A stretch of DNA of 32,380 bases from an uncultured virus (IMG/VR IMGVR_UViG_3300032030_000042) (taxonomy: Duplodnaviria; Heunggongvirae; Uroviricota; Caudoviricetes). Below are positions 10,352-32,380 of the stretch, piece by piece (the stretch's first letter is position 1; the number at the start of each line of letters is the position of its first letter). The translations under genes were made by a program, and so were the position numbers. A model generated the notes under the pieces. The model was not told the origin of the DNA, did not search any database, and saw only the letters and a program-made list of their open reading frames with translations. The DNA is taken from the IMG/VR virus record IMGVR_UViG_3300032030_000042; one strand, given 5' to 3'.

Positions 10352-10375
10352 ATTTCTTTATTTTTAAAAGTTTGT

Positions 10376-10422: not shown

Positions 10423-10439
10423 GAATTGATGGCTTTGGT

Positions 10440-11924: not shown

Positions 11925-11947
11925 TTTTTCTTATAGGTATTAAATTG

Positions 11948-13424: not shown

Positions 13425-13754
13425 TTAGTCTTTCGTCATGGTGCGTTTTATCCAGCCATAAAAGAACTTTTTATTATTAGGATTCTTTTCAGTGATGTTG
13501 ATATAATACTTAATTTTTTCTATACGTCGAGCGTTTATATAGTTTTCATAACTCATAGTCGTATCTAAACTATCAATAACGCCTCTTAAACGTAAATTTT
13601 CATGCTCTAGTTCTGCAATATACGCTGTATCTTGCAAAACCTTTTCAACGTAAATCGTATCAACAGTAATAGCAGTGTCTTTTGGGCACTGCTTACATAT
13701 TTTACCACAACCTAAAATTAAAGGCAGTAGCAACAATAAAAACCACTTTCTCAT
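13425..13754 (-). CDS. Lipoprotein, putative o-spanin-like
   Basis: MRKWFLLLLLPLILG-C lipobox; directly downstream of the endolysin. Confidence 0.55.
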   Translation of the reverse strand: MRKWFLLLLLPLILGCGKICKQCPKDTAITVDTIYVEKVLQDTAYIAELEHENLRLRGVIDSLDTTMSYENYINARRIEKIKYYINITEKNPNNKKFFYGWIKRTMTKD

Positions 13755-14164
13755 GTTCGTATTCTATTCAATTTAATTAACAACTCATTAGTCATAACTG
13801 TACGTTCAACCATATGAAGTGTGCGATAGGCAAGTCTTATACTCATAGCCACACCCATATTAACGGCTGTATCGTACATGTCGTTTGCTACTTTCTGGTT
13901 CTTGAGATTATCACCCCAAATCTTATCCCAATACTGAGATTTATACAACTGACGTTTTAAAATTTCCAACTGGTCGTTAATGTAACGCTTACCGCTCTTC
14001 TTATTAGGAATAGCATCAAGTATCCTCCAACCAGCCCAATTAGGATTTGCGGCTCTAGAAATTCCACTCCATGTTTCCTTTCCAGAATCTCCATCTATAT
14101 TAGTCCAGACATTTTTGCCTTCAAAACTTTCAGTGCGTGTAAATGCAACGTTAAAATCTGCCAT
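13751..14164 (-). CDS. Glycoside hydrolase family 108 endolysin
   Basis: FEG...D.GDSGKETWSGISR, YWD and YDTAVNMG motifs. Likely start MADF at 14164, giving a TAATG overlap with the upstream gene. Confidence 0.85.
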   Translation of the reverse strand: MADFNVAFTRTESFEGKNVWTNIDGDSGKETWSGISRAANPNWAGWRILDAIPNKKSGKRYINDQLEILKRQLYKSQYWDKIWGDNLKNQKVANDMYDTAVNMGVAMSIRLAYRTLHMVERTVMTNELLIKLNRIRT

Positions 14165-14520
14165 TATATATTCAAATATTGAGTCGTTACGCAATTAGCA
14201 TCCATCCAGCGAACTAATAAGTCTGCTTTTTTATCCGCTGGTAATTTCAGGAAGCCATCCAGTTGTCCTATCTTTTGTAAAAAATTAGTAAAACTATTTT
14301 CCAAATCATACATTTTAGCACCTTTGGAAATAATTTCCTGAATATTAACTTCCTTAATTTCGCTTAAATATCTATGATTGTGAATGGCGTCAGTTATCTG
14401 CTGATGTTGCCATTCCTTTGCAAGTGGAAAATCACCCTTGAAAGGTATATAACGACTTGGTTTATTTTTGAAGATATATTGGGTCGCCTTACCACCCAAT
14501 GAACTTAACATTTCTTCCAT
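14164..14520 (-). CDS. Hypothetical protein
   Basis: 118 aa ORF tightly packed in the operon. Confidence 0.65.
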   Translation of the reverse strand: MEEMLSSLGGKATQYIFKNKPSRYIPFKGDFPLAKEWQHQQITDAIHNHRYLSEIKEVNIQEIISKGAKMYDLENSFTNFLQKIGQLDGFLKLPADKKADLLVRWMDANCVTTQYLNI

Positions 14521-16964: not shown

Positions 16965-18757
16965 AATAATATTCCTTCTGCTTCTTCAACAGACATGGTT
17001 AATTCATCGTTGAATGCCTTTGCTAACGCACTTTCGTCATTCTCATCTACACTTACCATAGCACTTTTTTCTAACGATAACTCAGGTGTAATTATTTGAT
17101 TTCCGATTTCAACCTCAACAGCCTTGTTAAGATTTTTCAGAACCAAACGCTTCCAATCAAACTTATTACCACCAATTGCTTCAGCATATTCTTCATTTTC
17201 TTCAGCCTTTTTGCGACCACCAAGATTAGTATCAATTAACTCAAGCATCTTTGTAAAAGTACGCACACTAAATGTTTGCGGGTCAATCTTATCCTGATTA
17301 TTTAAAAACAAATCATAAAGTTCCTCGCGAATTTCTTGTTCTTCCTGAGCATTAGCATTAACCATTTTCTTACCCATAGTCTTATAGCGGTCTTTAAGAA
17401 CCTCTAAATTTTCACGAGTAGTAAAATGAATATCGTTATTATCAGCACGGCTCATAATTGCCTTATGGTCTTCATCACTATTCAACACTTCTTTGGTTTT
17501 ATTAGTAAGGAAAAGCATTTGGCCAGTAAATTTCTCTGGTTCTCCAGTACGACTATTTTTAAAGGTACGAATTTCAGGGTCTTCATCGGCAAGGCTCTTC
17601 ATCATACCTACAAGGTCTTTATTATTCGTAGTAAGTAAGCGGTCTTTATCATCGAACACTAACAACTTGCCCTTATGTTTAGTAAGTAATTCATTAAATT
17701 CTTTTGCAGAATTAACATCCTTATCAACTAACACCCAATCGTAGTTATCAGCATTGTCATCTTTATTCTTTTCTGGGTCGTAACGCTCCATGCCGTTCAA
17801 ACGAGCCATCTTCAAGAAGCCGGAAGTTTTACCAGCACCAGCACCACCTGAAGCAACAAACATAGGACGCTTCTTAGAAGTAATGAAATGGTCTAACTGC
17901 ATATTCAACGCACCAAGAATTGCTTTTGGCGGGTCATAATATGGGTCTTGACGTTTCATATAATCGCGAAAAGCGTCATATTGCTGGCGGTCTTTCAAAG
18001 ATTTCAAATCATTAAATTTTGACTTGATATATGAATTATTTGAATTATCCCAGCCATCATCTCCCTCAGGAAACGTTTCTTTACCCCATTCTTCAAGACC
18101 TAAACCCTCAATTGGCGAGTTATAATCTTCATATTCTTCCTCCGAAACATCAATAACATCAGAAGGATTCATGGTTTCCCATTTTTCTTTTGCTCTATCC
18201 CACTCATCCTGCAATTTGCCTTTTGGAGAAATTTTACTTTCATCAATACCACGAGCCATGGCTTCTTCAATAGCAATCATACGAACATTAGGATTGCCCT
18301 TAGGATTATTGGCGATTTTCAAAAGTTTATCGTCTGGAGTGAGGTTGACGTCAGCGTATGCCTTACGATAGGTTTCACGCTTCTGTTCCATTGGCTTATG
18401 AGTCTTCGGATTTAAGACAGTCCAAGACTTTTTTGCCTTAAAACCATACTTGGGGTCAGGCATAAAGGAATACTGAACTTTGGCTTCAGGGGCATCATAC
18501 TTATCCTCTTCAACTTTCTGCTCAATCTTTACCTCCTTTCCATTGCCTTTTTTATCTTCGGTAACAGTAGTGGTCTTTTTCTTAGTCTCATCCTCGTCAG
18601 TTTTGGCGGTTGTAGACGTGGAAATATTTTTGTTCTTATTATGCTTTCCCCTCATACTCTTCCAATCAAACTTTCCGGGAGCATACTCCGTCCACACCCA
18701 TTTGCCATTAGGATGGATATCACCTACTTGGTGTTTTGCTTTTTCAATCTCATTCAT
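16961..18757 (-). CDS. AAA+ ATPase with long N-terminal extension
   Basis: Walker A SGGAGAGKT, Walker B LLVFDDKD, sensor-1 FLTN, Arg-finger AIMSR and sensor-2 SVR. Confidence 0.8.
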   Translation of the reverse strand: MNEIEKAKHQVGDIHPNGKWVWTEYAPGKFDWKSMRGKHNKNKNISTSTTAKTDEDETKKKTTTVTEDKKGNGKEVKIEQKVEEDKYDAPEAKVQYSFMPDPKYGFKAKKSWTVLNPKTHKPMEQKRETYRKAYADVNLTPDDKLLKIANNPKGNPNVRMIAIEEAMARGIDESKISPKGKLQDEWDRAKEKWETMNPSDVIDVSEEEYEDYNSPIEGLGLEEWGKETFPEGDDGWDNSNNSYIKSKFNDLKSLKDRQQYDAFRDYMKRQDPYYDPPKAILGALNMQLDHFITSKKRPMFVASGGAGAGKTSGFLKMARLNGMERYDPEKNKDDNADNYDWVLVDKDVNSAKEFNELLTKHKGKLLVFDDKDRLLTTNNKDLVGMMKSLADEDPEIRTFKNSRTGEPEKFTGQMLFLTNKTKEVLNSDEDHKAIMSRADNNDIHFTTRENLEVLKDRYKTMGKKMVNANAQEEQEIREELYDLFLNNQDKIDPQTFSVRTFTKMLELIDTNLGGRKKAEENEEYAEAIGGNKFDWKRLVLKNLNKAVEVEIGNQIITPELSLEKSAMVSVDENDESALAKAFNDELTMSVEEAEGILL

Positions 18758-18793: not shown

Positions 18794-18803
18794 TTTATAA
18801 CTG
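18794..18803 (-). promoter_or_regulatory. Candidate late-promoter motif CAGTTATAAA
   Basis: About 37 nt upstream of the ATPase start; overlaps the stop of the upstream gene. Confidence 0.4.
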
Positions 18804-20321
18804 CTTAACCAGTTTTTGAATCCTGGTCATACATTTCGGCGTGTTCTCGAAAACCTTATAAATTGTCCTCAATTCAGGCACTCCATTAGTAGGTTTCTTT
18901 TTAGTATCAATTACAACGTTATCTGGCCATCGTTCAAGCATTATATTTTGCGCTTCCATAAGATTTTCCGTACGTTGGTAAGTTTCAGAAAGACCGCCTT
19001 TTTGTTTACCATCCTTATTCATACGTGTTTGCTGAAGATAACGCATAAATTTAGCAACTCGAAAACCAAGGTACATGCATTTTAACGAATAGTCAATGTC
19101 GGATTTGAATTTCAATGTAGTATCAAAATCAAATGCCTTTAATTTATTAGAATTAAATATCCAAACGACTGCCATGGTAAAATACCTTGACCGAGAACCA
19201 GGATACACTATTTTAGGACTTACATCCGGAGTATTCCAATCGAAAGCAGATTTTCCTACAGTACCAACATCAAATTCAGTACTACATATTTCCCTATCCA
19301 TTTCCTCAAAGAACGACTTAAATTCCTCAGCCGTTTTTAAAGACAATGAAATTTTAGGCTCATTGGGTAAATTATAAAACCAAGATAAAATATCATCGTC
19401 CATCATAACCACTGGGTTAGTTCCGTCATATAAATTCTTAACATAATTCATAACGTAACTAACACCTCGGTCATTTTCTGGCAATACAAGTACATTTTCG
19501 TGACCTGCATTGCGATACGCTTCTTCATCTTGCGGTTCAACAACTACAGTATAAGGTTGACCGCAAAGACGGAAATGCTTAAACGATTTTCCGTCAGGTC
19601 GTCCTTTACTGATAACATATATCTTAATATGGCGTTCCGCACTTGCTTTCCTGGTTGTAGGCGTCTCAATTTCCTTCAGGGTGTAATATTCTTCAGAATG
19701 TAGTTTAGCGATGTTATCATGCTCGTAAAAGAAAAAACCGCTTTGACTTTTATAACACTTTTGCGCTACTTGATATTTCAAAGCATTTATTTCCTTATCA
19801 TCGCCAGTAAGTAATAAGTCAATACGCTGCTCCTCATCTTGTAGTTGCTCCGCTGCTTTACGTTTATATGCATGCGGAAATTCCTTATAGAAAATAAAGG
19901 TGCTTTCTAAATCCCGCAACTGCATACGAACAAAGTAGTGAAACGGATGACCTATACCAAGCGGACATACAATCACATATCCTTTATTAATGTAATACTT
20001 TATCTTATTCAGTAAGATAGTACGAAATTCTTTGATGCGTTTACCAAACCTACCTCTGTAGAATTTAATAACATTAACGTCATTCAAAGTTTCACCCTTA
20101 AATTGCTTAAAGAATTCTTTATAATCATTATTGTCTTGGATATCAAAACCAAGTGAAATATACTTGATTCCTATCATACGACCTACTGCTTCATCTTCCT
20201 TAATACGCTTTGGGTCGTTATCTATTGTAAGCACTCTGACCTTATCTTGTTCTGAAAATAAAAACCTGGAGCAACTTAACAAGGCATCGTCAGAGTGCGG
20301 TTGTATAATCAATATCTTCAT
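18795..20321 (-). CDS. PIG-L-like deacetylase fused to GREB1/TAGT-like GT-A glycosyltransferase
   Basis: N-half: QPHSDD, PLGIGHPFH, YKSQ. C-half: IYVISKGRP, VVVEPQDEEAY, VMMDDDI, KSDIDYSL, QKGGL, ERWP. Confidence 0.82.
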   Translation of the reverse strand: MKILIIQPHSDDALLSCSRFLFSEQDKVRVLTIDNDPKRIKEDEAVGRMIGIKYISLGFDIQDNNDYKEFFKQFKGETLNDVNVIKFYRGRFGKRIKEFRTILLNKIKYYINKGYVIVCPLGIGHPFHYFVRMQLRDLESTFIFYKEFPHAYKRKAAEQLQDEEQRIDLLLTGDDKEINALKYQVAQKCYKSQSGFFFYEHDNIAKLHSEEYYTLKEIETPTTRKASAERHIKIYVISKGRPDGKSFKHFRLCGQPYTVVVEPQDEEAYRNAGHENVLVLPENDRGVSYVMNYVKNLYDGTNPVVMMDDDILSWFYNLPNEPKISLSLKTAEEFKSFFEEMDREICSTEFDVGTVGKSAFDWNTPDVSPKIVYPGSRSRYFTMAVVWIFNSNKLKAFDFDTTLKFKSDIDYSLKCMYLGFRVAKFMRYLQQTRMNKDGKQKGGLSETYQRTENLMEAQNIMLERWPDNVVIDTKKKPTNGVPELRTIYKVFENTPKCMTRIQKLVKQL

Positions 20322-20338
20322 AGCGTTAATTTTTTATA

Positions 20339-21016
20339 TTAAACGCTGCTTTCACCCTTAACGTAAATTTCTTCAGGCAGGTTCTTTCTAATGTATGCTT
20401 GCTCAAACCAGAGTAAACCGCTTTGGCTTTTATAGAATTTTTTAGCCAACTCCCACTTAACAGCCGCAAAATCTTCAACCTTATGTTGCGACTGAAGAAC
20501 ATATTGCTTGAGCAATTCCTCCATCTGCTTTTGTGATTTCTTTTTATAAGATTGAGGAAAATCGCGATAATATTTTAATTTTACGTTGCTATTGCCCTCA
20601 AATTCCTTTTCAATAACGTAACGGATAAAAATATGAAACGGATGCCCTACACCCAAAGGCAAAAAGACTACAACGCTTTTATGACGCTTAATAAAATTAC
20701 TTACATATGCAATAACCTCACGCTGTATTTCAGCAGTCTTTTTATTACCAAAATAATCGGTAATAAATTCAATTACCACGTCATCATTTACTTCTTTATG
20801 TTGCTTCTTGAAATCATAATACGAATTATCTTCAAATTCCACGTTCAAATGTTGGTATGGAATTTCAAGAAACTCGTATAACTTTTCATCCTCAGCTACT
20901 CGCTTAGCATTATTTTCAACAGTACATACTGAAACATTACCGCTGAAAAGCAAATGCGATGCAGAAAATAATGCATCGTCTGAATGAGGCTGAATAATGA
21001 GTTGTTTTTTAGCCAT
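20339..21016 (-). CDS. PIG-L/LmbE-like deacetylase
   Basis: QPHSDDALFS, PLGVGHPFH, YRDFP and YKSQSG; paralog of the next gene's N-terminal domain. Confidence 0.8.
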   Translation of the reverse strand: MAKKQLIIQPHSDDALFSASHLLFSGNVSVCTVENNAKRVAEDEKLYEFLEIPYQHLNVEFEDNSYYDFKKQHKEVNDDVVIEFITDYFGNKKTAEIQREVIAYVSNFIKRHKSVVVFLPLGVGHPFHIFIRYVIEKEFEGNSNVKLKYYRDFPQSYKKKSQKQMEELLKQYVLQSQHKVEDFAAVKWELAKKFYKSQSGLLWFEQAYIRKNLPEEIYVKGESSV

Positions 21017-21061
21017 AACAATTTTTATTTACAGTTCATAAAATTTAACGTTGATAATTCA

Positions 21062-21991
21062 CTACCCTTTTGAAACTTTAATGTTTAATTTAACATTACC
21101 AAGTTTACTGCTCTTACGTTTTATCGGTAACGTAAATGCATGGGTGGCTGGGTTCCAAGCATAGCCTGGTTTCTTATAATTAACAGTACAACGACAATAT
21201 GGATGCGTTGGAGCAATAGTTGGTAACCAATTAGGTGCCTTGCGCCCTATATTATTGCCGTTTGCTAATATATCGCCTAGTTTGAAAATCTTTGGTTCAC
21301 TATCTTCATCTTCTGAGTCGGTTAAATAAAGTTCCTTACAGCGTTCGCAAGCACCTTGCAAAACATCAAACCATATTTCCGCATCTGCTCCGTGTTCACG
21401 TAAAATACCCTGCGCTCTTCCTGTATTGAATGCTTCATGCATTAAATACTGACTAATGCGTAACCAATCAACTTCCCAGTCTTCAGATGTTCGAGCAAGG
21501 TCGGCTGCTAATGCACGAGCCATTTGGCGTGTTTTAACCGCATCAACAGTTTTTTCCTTTATGATTTTTGCTACAATTGCTGCTTGTTTAGCATTACTAT
21601 TCAAAGCAGCGTTTGCTACCGATGTACGCATGCGTGCCCCTAAATTTGTAATATCAGTATAGGCACGACGCTTCATATGCTGCAAAGCAAATTCCTCATC
21701 TTCATTCAAAGGTATAAAATTACCGCTTGCTAAAAAGTTTTGGAATTGCTTATAATTCATATTCTTTGCTCGAGCATCACCTATCGCTTCAGCAAGGATA
21801 CCAAATAGAAATGCATGCTCGATAACTCCTTGCTTATTTTTAAATGTATCTACATTAATGCCTGCAGCAAGGAGTATCGCCTTATCAGTCTTTGAAAGAA
21901 AGTCTGTACCTAGCTGGTTCGCTATAAACAAAAGTTCGTAACGTTGTAATATGCTGAGCATATCTTGTATTTGCGCCTGGGTAAAAATCAT
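21062..21991 (-). CDS. MuF/SPP1 gp7-like head morphogenesis protein
   Basis: AFNTGR, ACERC and the PTHPYCRC signature. Confidence 0.8.
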   Translation of the reverse strand: MIFTQAQIQDMLSILQRYELLFIANQLGTDFLSKTDKAILLAAGINVDTFKNKQGVIEHAFLFGILAEAIGDARAKNMNYKQFQNFLASGNFIPLNEDEEFALQHMKRRAYTDITNLGARMRTSVANAALNSNAKQAAIVAKIIKEKTVDAVKTRQMARALAADLARTSEDWEVDWLRISQYLMHEAFNTGRAQGILREHGADAEIWFDVLQGACERCKELYLTDSEDEDSEPKIFKLGDILANGNNIGRKAPNWLPTIAPTHPYCRCTVNYKKPGYAWNPATHAFTLPIKRKSSKLGNVKLNIKVSKG

Positions 21992-22173
21992 TCTTCGGTA
22001 ACGTTATCTTGATTATTATTCATCACTTCTTTGGCTGCATCAGCGATATACTTTAACACTTCAGCCAAGCAAGAAGCCGTATTCTTGCGCCATTGATTAT
22101 TGAAATCTTTTTCGTACTCATTAACGCAAGGATACGGCGACTTTATTACCACGTTATGTTTATGATTCGCCAT
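21988..22173 (-). CDS. Hypothetical protein
   Basis: 61 aa ORF with ATGA overlap to the MuF gene. Confidence 0.55.
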   Translation of the reverse strand: MANHKHNVVIKSPYPCVNEYEKDFNNQWRKNTASCLAEVLKYIADAAKEVMNNNQDNVTEE

Positions 22174-22191
22174 TCAAATTAAATATGAAAA

Positions 22192-22563
22192 TTATTCGTC
22201 ATATCTTGTAAACAAATCCTTTATACCAGCAGCATCTTTTGCAGCATCATTTGCTAAATAACGAGCTTGGCGTAAATCTTTATTTTCCTTATAAAACAAT
22301 CTATCAAATTCCCCTTTATACGCAGAAATATAATTTTCTGCTTCTTTATCCGTTTTTCCAGCATTTTTTAAATTGAAAAACATTTTAGCATGACTTCTCT
22401 GTTCACCATCCATTTGCGGACCTGCAAGTTCTAAAAACTTTTTAGAAGAAATAACATCTTTAAAACCATTATAAGTTCTATATAAAGCATCTCTCCAATC
22501 TGGAGAATCATTGTCATTAAATTCTAATTCAGCATCAAAAACTTCATCGATGTATTCCTCCAT
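22192..22563 (-). CDS. Hypothetical protein
   Basis: 123 aa, AT-rich ORF overlapping the upstream gene. Confidence 0.6.
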   Translation of the reverse strand: MEEYIDEVFDAELEFNDNDSPDWRDALYRTYNGFKDVISSKKFLELAGPQMDGEQRSHAKMFFNLKNAGKTDKEAENYISAYKGEFDRLFYKENKDLRQARYLANDAAKDAAGIKDLFTRYDE

Positions 22564-23278
22564 CCTTTTTTTTTGCTTCTTTTACACGCTTTTTAGTTTG
22601 TTTATATTCATCACTTCCTTTATCAAGCGTTTTTAAAGCTTCTTTATCATTTTTTAAACCCTCAACAAATTCTTTATTTCCAATTTTTTTAATATAATCA
22701 GTGTTATTACCATTATCACCACCACGCTTCTTCAATTCCTCCTTTGCTGCGTTACGCACATCTTCAGAAGCATTTTCATCGGCTGCTGCACGTTTCAATG
22801 CACCATCACTTGCTTTAGAAGCATGAGAACTTACATCAGATTTACCACTTTTACCATCAATATGTTTATCGTAAAGTTCATCAAGTTTTTTAGCAGGTAA
22901 TTTTTCAACAACGGATTTAATTTCTTTTTCATCCATTTCTGAAAAATCGACATCTGCTAAACTTTCAACCGCTGCAGCCATCTTACTACTTTCACCCATT
23001 GCCCGCATAATACGAGGAACATCATAAGTTCTATTCTTATTTGAATCACCACCCTCTTCTTTTTTAGTTGAAACTTTTCCATTAGGCATTTCTTCTTGTT
23101 TTTTATGACCATACGCCTGACCAACGCGGTTCAAACGACGGTTCTCTGCAGTATCCGCGTAAACACCGCTGCGAGCCTTTTCTAGTTCTTCATTAAGGTT
23201 CATACCAGAACCAAATGCTTTTTCAATGTTTTCCTGAACTGCCTGACGGCGAGTTTGAATGCCATATAAATCTTCCAT
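22544..23278 (-). CDS. Lys/Glu-rich mosaic protein, putative internal head protein
   Basis: IEKA/LEKA N-terminal motifs; shares modules with the genes at 16961-18757 and 31696-32380. Confidence 0.6.
   Translation of the reverse strand: MEDLYGIQTRRQAVQENIEKAFGSGMNLNEELEKARSGVYADTAENRRLNRVGQAYGHKKQEEMPNGKVSTKKEEGGDSNKNRTYDVPRIMRAMGESSKMAAAVESLADVDFSEMDEKEIKSVVEKLPAKKLDELYDKHIDGKSGKSDVSSHASKASDGALKRAAADENASEDVRNAAKEELKKRGGDNGNNTDYIKKIGNKEFVEGLKNDKEALKTLDKGSDEYKQTKKRVKEAKKKDGGIHR
22867..22967 (+). repeat. 101-bp exact direct repeat, copy 1
   Basis: Identical to 32280-32380. Confidence 0.95.
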
Positions 23279-23305
23279 AATATTATGTTTTTTAGTTTTT
23301 ATTTG

Positions 23306-23911
23306 TTAAAATTTTATTCCTACATTTATTGTATAACCAAACTGTTTTTGATATATAAACGCTGTTGCGCCAAAAACATACCTATCCGCAACTACACATA
23401 AACCGCTTAACTGATAACTTGTTAATTCTATACTTGCTCCTGCGGTTGCTATAAATGATAATGGTTTGTGCTTATATATTGTATTCGTTGTCGTAATAGT
23501 TTGCGTCTTTATTAACGGCTGGATGGTTGATACGGCATTCTGCAACTTATTTCGTTCAATGTCCAAATCTACCTTAAACACCCCAGTAGTATCAGTTGAA
23601 TAATCTAACAAATACTTGCGGGTAGTGGTATAATCGGCTATCGCATCCATGAGTAAGGAAGTGTCCTGATATATATATTTTATCGCCGTATCATGACGAA
23701 TTTCAGTGTAAGCAACAGGATAATAAATTGTATCGGTAATAACCTCACCTGGGAGGTATTCAGTAATAGTGTCAGTGGTGCTTTCAACTTTAATTTCATG
23801 ATAACCTACAATAATCCCTACAATAAATGCAGCGGAAAGAAAAATTACTGCGACAAGAAATATTACTTGCCACCATTCTTTAAGCCAATTTTTAAGATAA
23901 TCTTTGTTCAT
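23306..23911 (-). CDS. Membrane-anchored spanin-like protein
   Basis: N-terminal TM helix, DTI/DTA repeats and amphipathic beta strands ending in GYTINVGIKF; next to the holin-like gene. Confidence 0.5.
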   Translation of the reverse strand: MNKDYLKNWLKEWWQVIFLVAVIFLSAAFIVGIIVGYHEIKVESTTDTITEYLPGEVITDTIYYPVAYTEIRHDTAIKYIYQDTSLLMDAIADYTTTRKYLLDYSTDTTGVFKVDLDIERNKLQNAVSTIQPLIKTQTITTTNTIYKHKPLSFIATAGASIELTSYQLSGLCVVADRYVFGATAFIYQKQFGYTINVGIKF

Positions 23912-24362
23912 ATCCTTCTACTATTTTTTCAAGTTGCGTAATACGTTGCTTGTATTCTGTTTCACGCTTTCGAGATTCTTCCTCAAACAATTTATATTGC
24001 TCCATCAGTTTATCGTATTTAGCACGCTCCAACTCACGCTGCTTTTCATAGTCAGAACGCATTTCCTCTAACTCATTACGAAACGACTTAACAATTTCAT
24101 TGCTGAGTTTTCGCTCATTTTGATATTCTGCATATAATGAGTCATAACGTTCCTTCCACCAATCATCCTTACTTTGCACTTCCTTTTGAAGAACGTCATA
24201 ACGCTGCTTCCAAAACTCATCGCCCTTGATATCTGCCTGGGCTGCTGCTTCACGAACTTCTTGAACGTATTTTCGTTTATCTAAGATACGAGCAATGATT
24301 GCATAACCAATACCGCCAGTACCAAAGATTAATGATACTATATTTATCAACTGTTCGTTCAT
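23892..24362 (-). CDS. Putative holin/antiholin-like protein (one TM helix plus coiled coil)
   Basis: IVSLIFGTGGIGYAII TM segment followed by a long coiled coil. Confidence 0.5.
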   Translation of the reverse strand: MNEQLINIVSLIFGTGGIGYAIIARILDKRKYVQEVREAAAQADIKGDEFWKQRYDVLQKEVQSKDDWWKERYDSLYAEYQNERKLSNEIVKSFRNELEEMRSDYEKQRELERAKYDKLMEQYKLFEEESRKRETEYKQRITQLEKIVEGYEQRLS

Positions 24363-24363
24363 A

Positions 24364-24924
24364 TTATTCTTGTACTTTATGTATTTTTAGTTTTGCCGAC
24401 TTTACACGTTGCCTATAATTGTCGACGTTATAGTTTGACCGCAAACAGCGTATTATTTCATCAGCGAATAGTTTTACAACATCTGGGAAAGCAACGTTGT
24501 AATTGTTCCAGTCATATTCGTTATTAATAGTGCAAAGGTAAAAAATCGCCTTAGTAGATGCAGAAACTTTATTGAAAAATTTAAACCACCTTTTGTTATC
24601 CGAATCAACAAACTCTAGGTCACGCCAGCGTATCATAGGCGTCAGGCGGTCGTAGTCGTTAGATAAATTATATGCAAAATCACGTCCAATATACGAGCAG
24701 TTGCGATTCAAAGTAAGACCGCTGCCCTGCTTACCATCACGATAAAAATCAAATGCCATCGCTATACCATATGTATGATGTTTACGAAAATGATTAAAAA
24801 TATCAAAAGCGTTTTTAGATACCACTTCAACTCCACGATTGCGTAGTTCATTAGCAAGGGCATCTCGGAATAACTTTGATGCCCTATCGAAACGTCGCGT
24901 GGTAAGATAGACTATTTTACACAT
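24364..24924 (-). CDS. Amidase_3-fold-like protein lacking catalytic residues
   Basis: Pattern KIVYL...LANELRNRGVEVV...IAMAFDF...AIFYLCTINN..D...FADEIIRCL parallels N-acetylmuramoyl-L-alanine amidases, but the His/Glu ligands are missing. Confidence 0.45.
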   Translation of the reverse strand: MCKIVYLTTRRFDRASKLFRDALANELRNRGVEVVSKNAFDIFNHFRKHHTYGIAMAFDFYRDGKQGSGLTLNRNCSYIGRDFAYNLSNDYDRLTPMIRWRDLEFVDSDNKRWFKFFNKVSASTKAIFYLCTINNEYDWNNYNVAFPDVVKLFADEIIRCLRSNYNVDNYRQRVKSAKLKIHKVQE

Positions 24925-24934
24925 AATTCATTTT

Positions 24935-26938
24935 TTATTGAGACACATTCCATCCTCCAGAAGCAGTAGCATCTGCAGCAACTGGAGAAATATTATAAGG
25001 TGAAGCAAAACAATTTGTTCCCAAAGTTCCTGTACAATGACTCATGCCAAAACAATAACTAAAAGTTCCATGGCAACTAAACATATTATTACAGTGTCCT
25101 GATGATGAAGTTCCAAATGTACCATAACAATTTGTAAGTTCAGAAACTTGTTGAAAAGTACCGCCCTTGCAATTAATCAAAAATTGCGATAACCCATGAA
25201 AATTATCAGAAAAACAATCACTAATATAAACACAACCATAAATACTTTTAGTAACGCAATGAGAAATTCTTGCGCTATTATATATTCTTGGAACATTACA
25301 ATTTATTATATCGTAACAATTAGTCCAATAATTAACAGTTAAATCACTAAACACATTGACGTTTTCTATTCTATGGCAACGCTTAATTTTCACTTGCGCA
25401 TTACCAACGGGATTAATAATTAAATCTCTTATGTTTCCTAAATTTGCGAATAACCAAGTAGATAAATCACTACTTATTTCTTGCGTAGTGAACACATTAA
25501 TTACCGCTCCATTTCCGTTAAAAATCACCCCATTGTTGTAACTTTCATCTTCTGCTACTGAAGAAAAACCCTTAAAAAATATAGTGTTTGCGGTATTGCG
25601 ATAAATAGTTAAAACGCACTTTGGGTCAAAATCAACAATACATGGATTAGTGTTTATGAAATTCTCAAAAGATATCCCAGGGTGATTTGCTTGAGCATAT
25701 AAATTTCCCTTAAATAATATAGAATGAACTGATGACGGAATAACATCTAATGCAGCAAGTTGAGTAGAAGTTTCAACAACTAAATCATATTGAAAACAAC
25801 GTCTTGACGATAAAAAAATATTGTTTATCGAATAAGCCATTGAATTAAGCACTTGCTGTAATGTCGATTTTCCAGGAATAGGAATATATGGTTGAGAATT
25901 GTCTATCGCTTCAGCAAGGATAATTCCTTTTGTTTCTTGCTGAATCTTTGTTAAATATTTTTGCACCTTTTGAAATGCCGTTAGCAAAGTATCACTATTA
26001 TTGATATTTTGCAAGGTGCTTGCCGCAGCAAATGTTGAATCAATCTTAATACCACTAGCATTTTTAAATTGATTAACCCAACGCTGAAATTTAGTTACAA
26101 TCGTACTCAACGTATCGTTAGCAAAAACATCTACAGCCGTTCCTACTACTGGTGTAGCAGGTAACTTTTTAGAAAATACATTGACATCTGAAAGACCAGT
26201 AGAAATAGCGTTTTCGCAGTCCTGGCGTAAATGTTCATAATTATCAGCAACGTTATTGATTGCTTGTACTAATTGTTGATAATCTGTTTGATAAGTTTGA
26301 AATTTTACAAATCCTCCAGGAATATCGCTTTTGCTTTCAAAAGCATTTTCAAAATTAAAGTATAATCCACTATTCCAAGTAATGCTATTTCCAGCAATAG
26401 CAGAAATCAATGAAGATACTTTATATTTTACAAACTGCCATACGCTTCCATTCAAACGCTTTCCGAGCAAGAAGTCATTTGCGGTATTCCCAGGATTTAC
26501 CTCAGTAAAAGAAAATATAATGCGATTTGTAGTAGAATCATAAACACCGCTAATATTATCAATAGTAAGATTAGTTGATGTAACGTGATATTGAATATTG
26601 CTACCAAGGTCATCAATAAGAATATTGCCAACTGTATCTACATATTGAACTTTTGTAGTAGTAATAGCCAAGGCAAGAGCATTACTTTTATCGGTAATCT
26701 TATACCATTGACCTACTGTAAGGCCAGTGCTTGAAGCAAGATTGACTAATACTGAATATTGAATTGCGGTAATAAGATTAGGATTAAGATTCACCCATTG
26801 CTGTAAATCATTATCCCAAACCTTATGACAACGCTGGCTTGGCGTTTCATCATACCAAATTAAAGTTGTATTTTGAGGAGCGGAAGTTCCTATATGCAAT
26901 CCCTGAACTTGCCCCAGATTTTTTGTTCCTCCTGGCAT
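24935..26938 (-). CDS. Fibre/spike-like virion protein with C-terminal beta-helix-like repeats
   Basis: Likely start MPGGTKNLG at 26938. Contains IGTSAP..TTLIWYD, repeated DTL..xxKxQ helices and a Cys/Asn-periodic C-terminus. Confidence 0.55.
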   Translation of the reverse strand: MPGGTKNLGQVQGLHIGTSAPQNTTLIWYDETPSQRCHKVWDNDLQQWVNLNPNLITAIQYSVLVNLASSTGLTVGQWYKITDKSNALALAITTTKVQYVDTVGNILIDDLGSNIQYHVTSTNLTIDNISGVYDSTTNRIIFSFTEVNPGNTANDFLLGKRLNGSVWQFVKYKVSSLISAIAGNSITWNSGLYFNFENAFESKSDIPGGFVKFQTYQTDYQQLVQAINNVADNYEHLRQDCENAISTGLSDVNVFSKKLPATPVVGTAVDVFANDTLSTIVTKFQRWVNQFKNASGIKIDSTFAAASTLQNINNSDTLLTAFQKVQKYLTKIQQETKGIILAEAIDNSQPYIPIPGKSTLQQVLNSMAYSINNIFLSSRRCFQYDLVVETSTQLAALDVIPSSVHSILFKGNLYAQANHPGISFENFINTNPCIVDFDPKCVLTIYRNTANTIFFKGFSSVAEDESYNNGVIFNGNGAVINVFTTQEISSDLSTWLFANLGNIRDLIINPVGNAQVKIKRCHRIENVNVFSDLTVNYWTNCYDIINCNVPRIYNSARISHCVTKSIYGCVYISDCFSDNFHGLSQFLINCKGGTFQQVSELTNCYGTFGTSSSGHCNNMFSCHGTFSYCFGMSHCTGTLGTNCFASPYNISPVAADATASGGWNVSQ

Positions 26939-26951
26939 AGCGAATAATTTT

Positions 26952-27215
26952 TTAACGACCGTATGTATAATTAGCACGCTCGCTCCAAGCAAAGCGATAA
27001 TCCATTGAGCCTTGAGCATAAAGCGTCTTTGTTACTGTTCCTTGTTTTAATACCTTTGCAATGCGCCATCCTTCCTCATTTTCTTCAGTTCCTAATGGCG
27101 CATAACCATAATATTTTACATTAGTTCCGCTTTCAGTAGTTTCATCTACTAATGGTGCGGGCATGTACTCACTTAACGTTTGAACGACTGGTGCGTTAAT
27201 CTTACTGTCTTTCAT
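26952..27215 (-). CDS. Small hypothetical virion-associated protein
   Basis: 87 aa ORF after the portal gene; YYGYA.LG...WRI.K...W..RA.YTY pattern. Confidence 0.6.
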   Translation of the reverse strand: MKDSKINAPVVQTLSEYMPAPLVDETTESGTNVKYYGYAPLGTEENEEGWRIAKVLKQGTVTKTLYAQGSMDYRFAWSERANYTYGR

Positions 27216-27216
27216 G

Positions 27217-28926
27217 TTATTCTTTTGTTAAATAATTATCAAATGCTTTAATTAATTGAGCGTGGAAAGATTTCTCTTCGTAATCATCAAATGGATTTTC
27301 ATCTTTATTCCATTCAGAGTAATCAATGAAGTTCTCATCGGTTTCTTCGTCACCCTGCTCTTCTTCTTCATCACCGCCCATACTACCCATGCCACCCTGC
27401 ATTGCGGCTTGCTGTTGACGCATTGCTTCTTGATTCTTATTTGAAAGGAATGCACTATTTGCAGGAATATCACCACCCTCCAGAGGTTTCATGTCATATT
27501 TCTCACGCACCTCATTAATAGTAGCAAAATTCTGCATACGTTTAATATCCATATCAAGTTCCTCATCAATCGTCATGCCATTCAAACCAACGAACATTAA
27601 CTCAAAGTCTGGATTGATTTGTTCAACGATATATTTGTTGATTTTCTTTTGCAAGAATTTCAACAACGGATATAAACCTTTATCTTTGGAATGCTGTAGT
27701 CGTTCACTTTGACTGCCCTCAAATAAACCGCTATTGCCGGAACCACGGCTAATATCCCAACCGATTTCCGTTGGGTCAATAGTGTAAACTGCACAAGCGA
27801 TTTTAATCAAGTATTCCATCCAAGCGGAATACTCCATATCACGATTATTATGCTGCAGGTCAATCCAATCAACATCAGCCTGAACAACTGGCGTCTTCCA
27901 CGCTTGCATAACACCAGTTATCATTGACTGCCACTGTTGACGGAATTGCTGTAATGCCGCTTCGTTATTAGTTCCCTTAACTCTCAATAATCCCTTTGGT
28001 ACACTACCCTGACTGAAGAAGCGACGATTATATTCATCACTCCAAAGCATGGCGGTAACAACGTTGATTAAGTCTTCTAGTTCAGAAACACCATATCCAT
28101 TACTATAAATTGAAGTAGAAGGATTGCGAACCCCAAAGCACAATTCCCAGGGATAGAATTCATTTACCTTTGCTGAATTATAAACCTGAACGAAACTTGG
28201 GTAATATCCATCAATCTTTTTTCCAAAATCTTCTTTTCTATTCCAAACGGCTGCTCCGTTACGACGGAAGAAGTCATTATTGTAATCTTCGGCAAAATAA
28301 CTATCAGCAATACGGAAAGTAGAAGCATCAGTTGCAATAAAACTCTCAATCTGACCCCTGCGGTTTCGTATTACTTCAAAGGTCATCTGGTCATAGGTTA
28401 ATGAATCGTCAACAAGTTTACGAACAAACGTATCAAAATCATCACCACTCCAAGCACCTACATTACCGCCACGCAAAAGAAATTCCGTAATTCCAAACGC
28501 AATCTTCTTATCCTGAGCAGTCATCTTTACTTCTTCGCCATTACGTGTTTTACGACGGATAATAAAACCAGTAGAATATTTGTTTTCCTGAGGTTCAGCA
28601 AAATCTGCCACCTGAGTTTTACGTGTTTTGATAATGCTATTAATGATAGGTACTTTCGACATTCGCTTCAGCGTCATATATGACAGACTATATGGCTTGT
28701 CTTTGTAACCTAAATTAGCATTAAACTCCAATGGGTCAATAAAAAATGCTTTTGGTTCTACTTCCGATTGTTGACTTTTTTGTATAGCGTTATAAACCTC
28801 GTTTGCCTTTATCATATCAGCAGGCGAATCGGAGCGGAATGCTTTCTCCATCACCCGAAAACGTTTTGCTTTCAGATGTTGCTCCGCTTTCGACAATGCG
28901 TCTAACTGTTGTGCGTAACTACTCAT
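27217..28926 (-). CDS. Portal protein
   Basis: FVRKLVDDSLTYDQ, YGVSELE, FFSQGSVPKGLL, DMEY..W.EYLI and IDPTEIG motifs typical of SPO1/Twort-like portals. Confidence 0.93.
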   Translation of the reverse strand: MSSYAQQLDALSKAEQHLKAKRFRVMEKAFRSDSPADMIKANEVYNAIQKSQQSEVEPKAFFIDPLEFNANLGYKDKPYSLSYMTLKRMSKVPIINSIIKTRKTQVADFAEPQENKYSTGFIIRRKTRNGEEVKMTAQDKKIAFGITEFLLRGGNVGAWSGDDFDTFVRKLVDDSLTYDQMTFEVIRNRRGQIESFIATDASTFRIADSYFAEDYNNDFFRRNGAAVWNRKEDFGKKIDGYYPSFVQVYNSAKVNEFYPWELCFGVRNPSTSIYSNGYGVSELEDLINVVTAMLWSDEYNRRFFSQGSVPKGLLRVKGTNNEAALQQFRQQWQSMITGVMQAWKTPVVQADVDWIDLQHNNRDMEYSAWMEYLIKIACAVYTIDPTEIGWDISRGSGNSGLFEGSQSERLQHSKDKGLYPLLKFLQKKINKYIVEQINPDFELMFVGLNGMTIDEELDMDIKRMQNFATINEVREKYDMKPLEGGDIPANSAFLSNKNQEAMRQQQAAMQGGMGSMGGDEEEEQGDEETDENFIDYSEWNKDENPFDDYEEKSFHAQLIKAFDNYLTKE

Positions 28927-28956
28927 ATAAATTTTATACTACTTTTTTACTTTGAG

Positions 28957-28966
28957 TTTATAACTG
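28957..28966 (-). promoter_or_regulatory. Candidate late-promoter motif CAGTTATAAA
   Basis: Lies between a terminator and the portal start codon. Confidence 0.5.
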
Positions 28967-28967
28967 T

Positions 28968-28992
28968 AAAAGGACGCTGTTATTGCGTCCTT
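28968..28992 (-). terminator. Rho-independent terminator
   Basis: Minus strand AAGGACGC-AATAACA-GCGTCCTTTT. Confidence 0.7.
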
Positions 28993-29023
28993 ATCGTTAC
29001 GATTACAAATATTTCTTATGAAA

Positions 29024-29353
29024 TCACATGAAGGAATTGAATTTACTCCTTATCATACTTTCCAATCCAACATCGTAAATGATATAGAACTTTCCAAGTG
29101 TTTCATGCAATACAATTGCTTCATTATTGTATTCCCAAAGCGTTGTATTATCATCAAAAGAAGTTACCTCAACCCCATCATTAACCTTAATATCGTTGAC
29201 TAAATTTTTAAACGCTTCTAATTCTATCGCATCTGTAAAGCATTCATCAGTAAGACAGCGTAAACACTTCGCTGACGTATCCATCTCAGTTGCTACTAAC
29301 TGTAAATTAATATCAAGCGGTTCTTTTAAGTTACAAACTTTTAATGTTTTCAT
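29024..29353 (-). CDS. Hypothetical protein
   Basis: 109 aa ORF with ATGA coupling to the glycosyltransferase gene. Confidence 0.65.
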   Translation of the reverse strand: MKTLKVCNLKEPLDINLQLVATEMDTSAKCLRCLTDECFTDAIELEAFKNLVNDIKVNDGVEVTSFDDNTTLWEYNNEAIVLHETLGKFYIIYDVGLESMIRSKFNSFM

Positions 29354-30192
29354 ATTTCTTTTTTGATTTTACTCCAATTAACTACAACATCAAGCATTTC
29401 CTTACCCTCCATTTCACCATGCCAATTCTTATTGTTACGTCTTTTTATTTTAACGACACCAGGAAAGCGTTTAGCCATACTTTTAGCAACATTATTCATC
29501 ATATCTATGGTCCTGTAATAACTGCAACCTCCCTGACTATTACTGCCGTTCAGTTTATCAAACGACCAGCGATTAGTAACAAGAATATCATACCCCATAC
29601 GACGAACAGCAATTCCCGTAACAAAATCCTGCTTAATAGGATATTCAGACATGAATAAATCATTCTTCTTACAATAATACTTTCGAGTATCTAAACCCCA
29701 AATAGCAAAGAAACGCTTATTAAATTCATCATCAGGCATATTATCCCTATTAAAAGGACGAAATGACGGAGCCGATATAGCAATATTTTCAACATCAAGT
29801 ACATCCCAAAGAAAATTGAACATCTGTATCTGATGAAAACGTATCTCTTCGGCTGTAAAGTTATCATCGTTCAAAACTCTCGGTGTCTTATATTTACTAA
29901 GCATACGAACGGAAAAACTAACATTATCATCAATAAAGATGATTTTATGCTTCGGAGCATTCCACGCTAACCACTCACGCACTTCGCTTAAATTAGTACA
30001 TGACTTATCATATTCTTCAATCAAACGAACCTTACCACCCCAATTACGTTCATGCGCCTTCTTTTCACCAGGATGACAATATACGCAAACCGATTTACGA
30101 ACATCTGGATGAAGACGCATCAACGTTTTTTGTCCATCAATGCGTCCCCTCGTTGTTAAAACGATATATATATCTTTCCTTAAACGTTCCAT
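29350..30192 (-). CDS. GREB1/TAGT-like GT-A glycosyltransferase
   Basis: IVLTTRGR, VYCHPGE, LSEVREWL, IIFIDDN, KQDF, SQGGCSYYR and KRFPGVVK. Confidence 0.8.
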   Translation of the reverse strand: MERLRKDIYIVLTTRGRIDGQKTLMRLHPDVRKSVCVYCHPGEKKAHERNWGGKVRLIEEYDKSCTNLSEVREWLAWNAPKHKIIFIDDNVSFSVRMLSKYKTPRVLNDDNFTAEEIRFHQIQMFNFLWDVLDVENIAISAPSFRPFNRDNMPDDEFNKRFFAIWGLDTRKYYCKKNDLFMSEYPIKQDFVTGIAVRRMGYDILVTNRWSFDKLNGSNSQGGCSYYRTIDMMNNVAKSMAKRFPGVVKIKRRNNKNWHGEMEGKEMLDVVVNWSKIKKEI

Positions 30193-31325
30193 TACACGAC
30201 TTTTGTACGTGGGCTGAACTTACTTCTCTGCTTTCCTTCGCCGATAGTCATTTTCCAATACTTTTGAAATTCACACAACCACATTTCTATTTGATGAAGC
30301 GTAATATTGCACTTATTGGTTGTGTAATATTTATTCTTCTTTTTATCGTACTCTAAATATGGAAAACTTTGTCCATTCACCGCTACCTTTTCAAGCATTT
30401 CATCAGCCATATCACGTAAACGATAAATGCCTTCCTTTTGTTGTTTACCCTTTAAATTCGGAAAAATTAAACGAATACCGACAGACGCTCCTGGTCCGAC
30501 ATTGGTATAGTCGTTCTGGTCAAAACGCATAAAGCGACGATTAGTGTAGCGTGGTATGTAAGTGAAGTCTTGATAATATTCATGAGCAATGAAATTAGCA
30601 ACCGCAGGAAGTGTAGTCAGGAACGATATAATTTCCTCAGGTGTGTTAGCGGTTATAACAGTGCTTATAATTTCACTCATACGTCTGTGTATAGTCGGTA
30701 TTACAGACCTTGTATAGCAGTAATCACGGCTCTGTCCAGGAGTAGCTATACTGTTAATTAAATATGCCGTAGTGAACGGATTTTTACCGACGCTGCGTAT
30801 TCCAGCAATAAACCTTACAAATTCCTCCTCATCATACTCATCGTAATCGGGGATACCATTTTTCCATTTAGTTGCCGGAATAAGTTCTGTAGTATCATTT
30901 GCCTGACGCAATCCGGATTTAACCGCATCACCAAATAGATTTGTTTGTAATGATTTGCCTTTTGGGTCAAAAGTGAATGTTTCGGGATTATTAAAGGTAC
31001 GAAACACCATTAATTTCCAAATCAAATTTTTAAGCGAAAGTGACTGGTCTAATAGGATGTTGTTAATTTGCCATTGACTGTTGCGGTCTAATTCCCTATA
31101 TACATTAGTGAATTTATAATCACGTAATATGATATTTGTTGTCCATGGAGCAGGACGCTTTTCAATAAAACGACGTTTCCAAACCATTTGTCGCTCATAC
31201 ATCGTCTGGAAGAATAAAAGTAAGTTTTCTTCACAAACATTTAATTTTTCATCCGGCAAGTTTTTATACCAACTGTAATCTTCAAACATAAAATTATAAA
31301 GTTTTTGTGTTTTTACGAATTTCAA
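30192..31325 (-). CDS. aGPT-Pplase1 / 5-hmdU DNA kinase helical-domain family protein (DNA hypermodification)
   Basis: ERQ.VW..R...PAPWT.N.IL..YKFTNVYRELDR signature, plus FR.FN, AY, F.A..Y.QD, GPGA..GI and IEMWLCEFQKY. Confidence 0.85.
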   Translation of the reverse strand: MKFVKTQKLYNFMFEDYSWYKNLPDEKLNVCEENLLLFFQTMYERQMVWKRRFIEKRPAPWTTNIILRDYKFTNVYRELDRNSQWQINNILLDQSLSLKNLIWKLMVFRTFNNPETFTFDPKGKSLQTNLFGDAVKSGLRQANDTTELIPATKWKNGIPDYDEYDEEEFVRFIAGIRSVGKNPFTTAYLINSIATPGQSRDYCYTRSVIPTIHRRMSEIISTVITANTPEEIISFLTTLPAVANFIAHEYYQDFTYIPRYTNRRFMRFDQNDYTNVGPGASVGIRLIFPNLKGKQQKEGIYRLRDMADEMLEKVAVNGQSFPYLEYDKKKNKYYTTNKCNITLHQIEMWLCEFQKYWKMTIGEGKQRSKFSPRTKVV

Positions 31326-31695: not shown

Positions 31696-32380
31696 TTAGA
31701 ATTTCAAACAAGCAGCCTGACGCGGCGTGAGGTCATAGTTCTTTTTATCCTTTACCTGACTAAGAAGTTCAAGAGCCTTGAGGTCTGCGCAAACATTATA
31801 CATTTGGTAAACCAAATCATTATATTCACGACGAGCCGTTGCTTGCTCCTTGCTTTCGGGACGCAACCCATTTTTGTTCTCATCATCTTCAGCGGTGATA
31901 GAATCCTGACGAGCATTCTCGTCGTAATAAACAGCATCCCAGGGATAACGCTTATAACCGCAATCCATAGCAACACCACCAGTCATATATGGGTCGGGCA
32001 ATTCGGTTGGAGCAGCACCGCAATCCTTTAATTTCTCGTCTGCCTGAGCCTTCAAAGAACCGAGGTGAGTAACTAACTCTGGACATACAACGCCTTGTAT
32101 TTGTTGCTTAATTTCGGCTCCTGTTTTAGTAAGTTTAATGGCGTCACTACCATCACTGAAAGCATACATGATGTCGCTTTTAGTAAGTTCAGTCATTTCC
32201 GCACCCTCTTCTGGAGTTAATTCACCACCCATAATGCCTTTTTCAAAGATACGTTCATTTTCTGACTTCCCAATATATCTATCGTAAAGTTCATCAAGTT
32301 TTTTAGCAGGTAATTTTTCAACAACGGATTTAATTTCTTTTTCATCCATTTCTGAAAAATCGACATCTGCTAAACTTTCA
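31696..32380 (-). CDS. Hypothetical protein, 5' truncated; putative internal head protein
   Basis: Frame is open to the window edge (ESLADVDFSEMDEK...); FEKG and LTKS motifs. Confidence 0.7.
   Translation of the reverse strand, partial: ESLADVDFSEMDEKEIKSVVEKLPAKKLDELYDRYIGKSENERIFEKGIMGGELTPEEGAEMTELTKSDIMYAFSDGSDAIKLTKTGAEIKQQIQGVVCPELVTHLGSLKAQADEKLKDCGAAPTELPDPYMTGGVAMDCGYKRYPWDAVYYDENARQDSITAEDDENKNGLRPESKEQATARREYNDLVYQMYNVCADLKALELLSQVKDKKNYDLTPRQAACLKF
32280..32380 (+). repeat. 101-bp exact direct repeat, copy 2 (may extend beyond window)
   Basis: Identical to 22867-22967. Confidence 0.95.

Follow-up and report, generated by a model that had tools for sequence, protein, structure and literature searches.

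An LmbE/PIG-L-like domain fused to a TAGT-type glycosyltransferase, with HMUDK_hel nearby, in an uncultured tailed phage: a candidate module for amino-sugar modification of DNA

What might a tailed phage do with sugar transferases and putative sugar deacetylases placed on both sides of its portal gene, one of the transferases being coupled to a gene of the HMUDK_hel family? The question is raised by a 32,380-nucleotide stretch of an uncultured virus (IMG/VR record IMGVR_UViG_3300032030_000042), the whole of which is called the window here; it corresponds to the structural half of the genome of an uncultured tailed phage (approximately 90-120 kb), and every sizeable open reading frame (ORF) in it lies on the minus strand. 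An initial annotation of this stretch saw in it a candidate new pathway, in which an N-acetylhexosamine (HexNAc) would be added to a DNA base and then deacetylated. The answer towards which we lean, if only slightly, is that 5-hydroxymethyl-deoxyuridine (5-hmdU) in the phage DNA is O-glycosylated with HexNAc, and that the sugar is then de-N-acetylated. The genes in question are the following:

30192-31325, minus strand: HMUDK_hel (formerly aGPT-Pplase clade 1), 377 amino acids (aa) from a TTG start; PF18723
29350-30192, minus strand: standalone TAGT-type GT-A glycosyltransferase, 280 aa; phrog_842, with PF20691 in homologues
20339-21016, minus strand: standalone LmbE/PIG-L-like putative de-N-acetylase, 225 aa; PF02585 below cut-off, H11-S-D13-D14 and H128
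18795-20321, minus strand: PIG-L::TAGT fusion gene, 508 aa; PF20691 and a PIG-L-like N-terminus
19659-20321, minus strand: PIG-L-like domain of the fusion, residues 1-221; LmbE fold and motif
18804-19637, minus strand: TAGT GT-A domain of the fusion, residues 229-506; PF20691

These genes form two pairs, HMUDK_hel with the 280-aa glycosyltransferase and the standalone PIG-L-like gene with the fusion, which lie approximately 8.3 kb apart with the portal gene (27217-28926) between them, much as first described (some 8 kb apart, flanking the portal). In the former pair the stop codon of HMUDK_hel overlaps the start codon of the glycosyltransferase in the letters TAATG, so that the coupling reported initially can be read directly in the sequence. 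To judge from their homologues, the module genes are conserved coding genes and not chance ORFs, because homologue clusters exist for each of them (25 for the fusion, 18 for the 280-aa glycosyltransferase, 147 for the standalone PIG-L-like protein, and 2472 representatives at E ≤ 0.001 for HMUDK_hel). Megablast of the region gave no match among GenBank phages.

Members of the LmbE/PIG-L superfamily carry an HxD1D2 motif and a further His, which make up the metal/base motif, with a spacer of 97-148 residues (PMC4101496). The set is complete in both window proteins, as H9-S-D11-D12 and H128 in the fusion (invariant in 28 sequences) and as H11-S-D13-D14 and H128 in the standalone protein (invariant in 43 sequences). 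The N-terminal half of the fusion has no PF02585 match up to E 10; its first 214 residues share 38% identity with the standalone protein, and in an AlphaFold2 model of the fusion, built on a 28-sequence alignment (mean predicted local distance difference test score, pLDDT, of 87), this half takes the Rossmann-like LmbE/PIG-L fold, its best structural matches, by 3-4 Z units, being deacetylases of N-acetylglucosamine (GlcNAc) glycosides. The C-terminal half of the same model is of the GT-A/TAGT type with an acidic DXD-type motif, and residues 232-443 match PF20691 (TET-associated glycosyltransferase, TAGT) at E 3.5e-15, with 56.9 bits against a cut-off of 27.5. With an LmbE fold and intact HxDD+H set at one end and a GT-A/TAGT domain at the other, the protein is the PIG-L::glycosyltransferase fusion that the initial annotation had taken it for. 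The family of the standalone protein comprises 147 clusters that have neither Pfam domain nor name in the protein collection; 17 of its 43 members reach PF02585 at E ≤ 0.01, with no other family recurring, and the window protein has no tblastn match in 50,697 GenBank phage records.

On another reading, 5-hmdU might be glycosylated whilst the PIG-L-like domains are other amide or ester hydrolases, or binding modules, in which case the sugar need not be a HexNAc. We consider this quite improbable: the full HxDD+H set is invariant in 71 sequences, the best structural matches lead to GlcNAc-glycoside deacetylases by the margin given above, and the fusion to a transferase argues for consecutive steps on one substrate.

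The glycosyltransferases themselves point to DNA bases by family. The 280-aa protein, correctly called a GT-A glycosyltransferase from the outset, matches phrog_842 ('beta-glucosyl-HMC-alpha-glucosyltransferase') at E 2.2e-27; it has no Pfam TAGT match of its own up to E 10, and PF20691 is found in 17 of its 18 homologue clusters, with relatives scoring 27.9 and 26.6 bits. The two transferase domains of the window are distantly related (BLASTP E 0.55, co-linear), and phmmer against PDB sequences gave nothing meaningful for the fusion, the 280-aa protein or HMUDK_hel. TAGT enzymes act directly on hydroxymethyl bases, and phage GT-II/GT-I pairs place mono- or disaccharides of GlcNAc or glucose on 5-hydroxymethylcytosine (5hmC) in DNA (PMC8256090). 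Genes of the 280-aa type found elsewhere lie among replication genes or beside HMUDK_hel.

The source of the hydroxymethyl base, which the initial annotation would have sought in the rest of the genome, was looked for in relatives. A search with an alignment of the HMUDK_hel clade showed that a relative is encoded in 216 IMG/VR stretches, of which 80 loci were kept; all records of at least 85 kb among these (28, of which 26 are at least 90% complete by CheckV) serve as the relatives in this work, the other 52 being left out because they are too short for absence calls. Locus and genome searches gave contigs of the same phage group, with a head protein 76-79% identical. A thymidylate-synthase (TS) homologue is present in 27 of the 28 (all but G014). 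In the two examined, G002 and G004, it carries the motifs K-D-[LI]-P-C-N and R-S-N-D-L-H-x-G-L-P-T-N, with an Asp three residues before the catalytic Cys, at the position of E. coli L143, and with D169 and N177 kept; the E. coli numbers are those that we take to correspond, by motif position. Of these residues, N177 indicates dUMP rather than dCMP as substrate, an acidic side chain in place of L143 accompanies hydroxymethylation, and retention of D169 speaks against a 5-hydroxycytosine synthase (PMC13326640). The best phage matches of these homologues are the SP-10 'dUMP hydroxymethylase', SPO1 gp29 and the Goe9 'deoxyuridylate hydroxymethyltransferase', at 37-41% identity, and the K-D-x-P-C-N motif is common to M6 gp58 and a Nachito protein. 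By their sequences, then, the TS homologues of G002 and G004 carry the residues of dUMP hydroxymethylases, and the hydroxymethyl source foreseen initially is found to this extent, i.e., in the relatives. PF12851 (TET/JBP) gave nothing in the 28 relatives, nor in any control. In both G002 and G004, genes for a YfbR-like nucleotidase, DUF1599 and a dUTPase lie near that of the PolIII-alpha replicase as well. The replicase gene of G004 (L032:2896-7449) is split into ORFs of 557 and 692 aa by a 267-aa ORF, with GIY-YIG/NUMOD3 homing-endonuclease-like genes nearby, and that of G002 is intact (1176 aa).

Transferase and deacetylase travel together in the relatives. The PIG-L-like gene is present in 28 of 28; a TAGT gene is fused to it or directly beside it in ten (fused and split forms both exist), and in the other 18 a GT4-like protein of 389 aa, of the type seen in G004, is encoded near it, on the same strand and at most 710 nt away in 17 and 1.7 kb away in one (G022). 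The co-occurrence in relatives anticipated in the initial annotation thus holds throughout, with the two genes fused, adjacent or, in one record, 1.7 kb apart. The GT4 assignment comes from four weak GT-B Pfam matches (E 0.014-0.21) and from the nearest Atlas clusters, which are GT4 with scores of 0.95-0.97. A second transferase, of the 280-aa type, is present in 10 of the 28. These counts come from alignment searches, because a six-frame family search with PF20691 missed known matches in G002 and G004. The deacetylase, in short, is never without a transferase beside it, although the fold of that transferase differs between relatives.

Around HMUDK_hel the usual order in the 80 loci is w217, w102, HMUDK_hel, a variable slot, a gene for a 109-aa protein and the portal gene, not all of them being present everywhere. 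A census of the slot (80 loci, 3-kb flanks, matches covering at least 40% of the query length) gave the following contents:

most of the 80 loci: nothing
20 of 80 loci: FkbM-type methyltransferase
4 of 80 loci: 280-aa-type transferase
1 of 80 loci: Dam-type methylase
1 of 80 loci: Radical SAM/SPASM

In G002 (L009:6767-7735), L017, L018 and L019, too, a Radical SAM/SPASM gene stands before a TAGT gene, and in G003 (L014:4029-6767) an InPase gene (PF18823, E 9e-51) and an FkbM gene stand ahead of the fusion, a 334-aa ORF being present in addition. The modification module is combinatorial, as hypermodification clusters are known to be (PMC8989533).

Put together, these observations can be arranged into a pathway, in which DNA as acceptor, HexNAc as donor sugar and the order of steps are what we infer from the observed gene identities, folds, motifs and co-occurrence. 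Thymidine would first be replaced by 5-hmdU, made at the nucleotide level by the TS homologue, if the window phage has what its relatives have. The GT-A domain of the fusion, working on polymeric DNA, would then move HexNAc from a host uridine diphosphate (UDP)-HexNAc to the 5-hydroxymethyl group; a host UDP-sugar is assumed because no enzyme of nucleoside diphosphate (NDP)-sugar synthesis was seen in Pfam scans of G002 and G004, so that the NDP-sugar genes for which the initial annotation would have searched the rest of the genome did not turn up there. The fused LmbE/PIG-L domain would strip the sugar of its N-acetyl group, so that the base ends up with an amino sugar able to take up a proton, and the second TAGT-type transferase and the standalone PIG-L-like enzyme could extend or diversify the glycan by adding a second sugar and removing a second acetyl group. 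With both predicted activities occurring twice in the window, the likely outcome is a disaccharide or else a pair of alternative products. HMUDK_hel, finally, which retains the HhH-glycosylase-like fold and Glu/Cys motif of amino-acid:DNA transferases, would act on the same 5-hmdU residues, without the kinase and without the clade 2 transferase of the known pathway.

The identity of HMUDK_hel, given initially as aGPT-Pplase1, is confirmed by PF18723, matched at E 4e-45 and with 154.8 bits (cut-off 25). Its likelier start is the ATG at 31289 and not the TTG, because homologues begin at residue 13. The protein is approximately 28% identical to products of ViI-like and SP10-like phage genes, one of them labelled 'aGPT-pyrophosphorylase clade 1' (Nachito), and homologous to M6 gp55 (BLASTP 7e-18), i.e., to the M6 gp55/ViI gp160 family; by comparison of annotations and literature, HMUDK_hel is known only from thymidine-hypermodifying phages. 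Its predicted model (pLDDT 93.4) has an HhH-GPD glycosylase-like fold in a full VIA search, and no Foldseek match at E ≤ 0.001. A label of small terminase (phrog_800, 1.4e-10, and some GenBank records) was considered and dropped because of the HhH-like fold and PF18723 membership.

In current Pfam the M6 proteins fall into PF18723 (gp55), PF18724 'ADDT' (the glycine:DNA transferase gp51) and PF18748 (the kinase gp54). Amino-acid transfer has been shown for clade 2 enzymes only, which need the kinase-made 5-phosphomethyl-deoxyuridine (5-PmdU), whilst the M6 gp55/ViI gp160 family has no demonstrated activity, and M6 gp55 is dispensable for the product in vitro (PMC8989533, Lee et al. 2021). The partners of the known pathway are missing here: the 5-hmdU DNA kinase (5-HMUDK, PF18748) was found in none of the 28 relatives at E ≤ 0.1 in a six-frame search that recovered it in both controls (M6 and Nachito), in none of five relatives at E ≤ 1, and with a best E of 0.19 in tblastn with the Nachito kinase, whilst the amino-acid:DNA transferase PF18724 was found in none of the 28 (M6 control positive, Nachito negative). 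The P-loop kinase that the initial annotation looked to in the rest of the genome is therefore not there in the relatives, and, because both kinase and PF18724 transferase are absent, HMUDK_hel cannot work as in known thymidine hypermodification. Nachito itself (Bacillus phage, OP380492.1, SP10-like) has HMUDK_hel and the kinase and is PF18724-negative in the six-frame search, because of which clade 1 may be the transferase in SP10-like phages.

How could HMUDK_hel act without a base kinase? It might present flipped-out 5-hmdU to the transferases or, in a Cys-dependent manner, join the glucosamine amine exposed by the deacetylase to the C5 methylene, although we regard either kind of action as distinctly doubtful; the product of the latter route, if true, would be a cationic amino-sugar thymine, N-linked or of some other kind without precedent. 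HMUDK_hel has the motif E347-x3-C351-E352; across 82 diverse members C351 and K355 never vary, and at least 90% keep E347 and E352. Written as IE-x2-L-C-E-F-x-K-Y, the motif resembles EVETVLCKWK of M6 gp51, and by this resemblance it may correspond to the Cys/Glu pair that Lee et al. found essential, in a protein that has no PF18724 match up to E 10. A further reading makes HMUDK_hel the transferase proper, with the Cys at C6 producing an exocyclic C5 methylene from unphosphorylated 5-hmdU, which traps the amine of a glucosamine glycoside and leaves an N-linked amino-sugar thymine. This we hold to be very unlikely. No kinase-independent reaction is known for the family, M6 gp55 can be dispensed with in vitro as said above, the equivalence of C351 and the essential Cys of gp51 is presumed from sequence, and TAGT enzymes work directly on hydroxymethyl bases (PMC8256090).

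Several observations weigh against 5-hmdU glycosylation followed by de-N-acetylation, and they concern each of its parts. As to the deacetylase, the standalone protein, initially called a PIG-L deacetylase without reserve, keeps that status by its motif, invariant in 43 sequences, and not by its Pfam score, PF02585 being reached only at E 7.3e-4 and 20.5 bits, below the cut-off of 28.2; PDB sequences searched with a profile of its family, besides, yielded no LmbE chain at E ≤ 1. As to the transferases, the 280-aa protein has DDN (D88-D89-N90, invariant in 19 sequences) instead of a full DXD motif, protein O-GalNAc transferases are the structures closest to the GT-A domain, and the fold does not tell which donor is used. 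The hydroxymethylase of the window phage is deduced from relatives with 54-79% protein identity, and 5-HMUDK and PF18724, the partners that would account for a role of HMUDK_hel, are absent from all 28 of them. Their co-occurrence, in turn, is not independent evidence, because the 28 relatives are one lineage and were chosen for HMUDK_hel, whilst adjacency of HMUDK_hel and a transferase is rare, the TAATG pairing of the window being an exception because the slot holds a 280-aa-type transferase in only 4 of 80 loci. The module genes, moreover, sit among head genes, and the support comes from comparison of sequences and structures.

Alternatively, the amino-sugar glycan might be built on something other than DNA, be it a protein of the virion, a small molecule or material of the host envelope, with HMUDK_hel and the 5-hmdU system unrelated to it. 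The block of head genes encloses both the fusion and the standalone PIG-L-like gene, with a weakly MuF-like gene on one side of them and large virion-type genes on the other; teichoic-acid GlcNAc transferases join the protein O-GalNAc transferases among the top structural neighbours of the GT-A domain; the known substrates of LmbE enzymes are small glycosides (PMC4101496); and the co-occurrence with HMUDK_hel and the TS homologue is confined to a single lineage. On the other hand, the sequence families matched (PF20691, phrog_842) are those of DNA-base transferases, genes of the 280-aa type keep company elsewhere with replication genes or HMUDK_hel, and neither an export signal nor a glycan-carrier gene was seen in Pfam scans of the window, G002 and G004. 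On balance a target other than DNA seems unlikely to us, and modification of 5-hmdU remains the reading that we prefer.

The remaining features of the window are those of a structural region:

27217-28926, minus strand: portal protein gene, given as context only; PF04860, E 2.4e-20, and phrog_12, E 1.4e-49
29024-29353, minus strand: conserved 109-aa protein; synteny between the variable slot and the portal gene
16961-18757, minus strand: 598-aa protein with a Walker A motif, conserved beside the module
13425-14194, minus strand: GH108/PG_binding_3 lysin; Pfam/PHROG scan
elsewhere in the window, minus strand: major head protein; phrog_752, E 1.6e-84
elsewhere in the window, minus strand: prohead protease; Pfam/PHROG scan
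elsewhere in the window, minus strand: M23 tail lysin; Pfam/PHROG scan
elsewhere in the window, minus strand: sheath, a weak match; Pfam/PHROG scan

The 109-aa protein has no family match in Pfam or PHROG, and its gene stands between slot and portal in approximately 46 of the 80 related loci. In the window, G002 and G003 the 598-aa gene is the next one downstream of the PIG-L/transferase module, and a 77-aa ORF intervenes in G004. Its product has a Walker A motif (GGAGAGKT) at approximately residue 310, also present in the G002 and G004 orthologues, and weak AAA/NTPase Pfam matches, with phage AAA/nSTAND ATPases as nearest Atlas clusters. It was considered as the missing kinase and rejected, being AAA/nSTAND-like by sequence and giving no PF18748 match; it may be part of the system. 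Its first 35-45 residues (window 18620-18750) also open several proteins of the G002, G003 and G004 loci that are otherwise unrelated (52-69% identity), and may be a shared targeting or propeptide segment.

Three further observations concern the window as a whole. A direct repeat of 110 nt, 98% identical between its copies (22858-22967 and 32271-32380, spaced by 9413 nt), brackets the portal, the 280-aa transferase and HMUDK_hel; one copy is inside the ORF at 22544-23278, and the other, at the start of the ORF at 31696-32379, reaches the end of the window and may be longer. The lysin consists of two overlapping ORFs (GH108 at 13751-14194 and PG_binding_3 at 13425-13754), whose domains perhaps belong to one protein, the split being due to a frameshift or a true two-gene form. 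The G+C content, finally, peaks at 0.477 in 10001-12000, over the major head protein gene, against 0.34-0.40 elsewhere.

The gene set is real, conserved and widespread in metagenomes. Glycosylated hydroxymethylpyrimidines are a classic shield of phages against restriction enzymes and CRISPR nucleases, and an amino sugar on thymine, if it is indeed made, would be a new DNA base chemistry, bringing a positive charge as well as a bulky group, an effect that we likewise infer. A transferase-deacetylase fusion acting on DNA could then also serve as a tool for labelling 5-hydroxymethyluracil (5-hmU). As HMUDK_hel is conserved in all known thymidine-hypermodifying phages, a system in which its usual kinase is absent offers a clean case for its study.

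How does the module compare with what is already known? Our literature searches found no paper that brings aGPT-Pplase/HMUDK_hel, a glycosyltransferase and a PIG-L/LmbE deacetylase together in phage DNA modification (the supplements of the nearest papers lay outside their scope), in line with the initial annotation, which knew of no characterised pathway with this combination. Like the hypermodification of M6, ViI, PaMx11, PhiW-14 and SP10 (Lee et al. 2018, 2021), it features a predicted dUMP hydroxymethylase, a YfbR-like nucleotidase and an HMUDK_hel homologous to M6 gp55; unlike there, the relatives have neither 5-HMUDK nor PF18724 (0 of 28 each), glycosyltransferases and deacetylases standing in their place, and Pfam scans of G002 and G004 showed no pyridoxal-phosphate (PLP) enzyme. 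With the TET/5hmC GT-II/GT-I systems (Burke et al. 2021, PMC8256090) and the glucosylation of hydroxymethylcytosine in T-even phages it shares TAGT/phrog_842-type transferases working on a hydroxymethylpyrimidine of DNA; in the former, a pair of transferases is able to make a disaccharide, with UDP-GlcNAc among the donors accepted, and the window likewise has two transferases. Here, however, the base is predicted to be 5-hmdU from a TS homologue, and not the product of TET or of a dCMP hydroxymethylase, and the transferase has a de-N-acetylase fused to it or next to it, with HMUDK_hel in addition, whereas the word 'deacetylase' occurs 0 times in PMC8256090. Base J is also an O-glycosylated 5-hmU in DNA (predicted in our case), but its hmU comes from oxidation of T by JBP, its sugar is glucose, no deacetylation is known, and it belongs to eukaryotes.

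Predicted GlcNAc transfer followed by metal-dependent de-N-acetylation is, on the other hand, the logic of MshA/MshB, BshA/BshB, PIG-A/PIG-L and teicoplanin Orf2*, with which both the fold and the HxDD+H set agree. MshA, BshA and PIG-A are GT4 enzymes, paired with LmbE deacetylases in MshA/MshB, BshA/BshB and PIG-A/PIG-L, and a PIG-L-like gene is paired with a GT4-like one in 18 of our 28 relatives too. The differences are that a DNA base is the predicted acceptor here, in place of inositol, malate, phosphatidylinositol or a glycopeptide, and that the transferase of the window is of the GT-A type and fused. The nearest published case is the thymidine-glycan gene block of Carin-5, which has transferases and a predicted GlcNAc N-deacetylase; in SP-15, YerA41 and Carin-5 a thymidine-derived base carries sugars including GlcNAc, as would be the case here, but through a dihydroxypentyl or phosphate linker, the phages encode NDP-sugar enzymes, and the deacetylase bears the annotation 'polysaccharide deacetylase', not LmbE (PMC12686479). 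A second near case is that of T-dioxygenase clade C2 genes, which are reported often to accompany glycosyltransferases (PMC13229309, 2026). What is new in the present module, within phage glycosylation of hydroxymethylpyrimidines, is an LmbE deacetylase coupled to the transferase and an HMUDK_hel that goes without its kinase.

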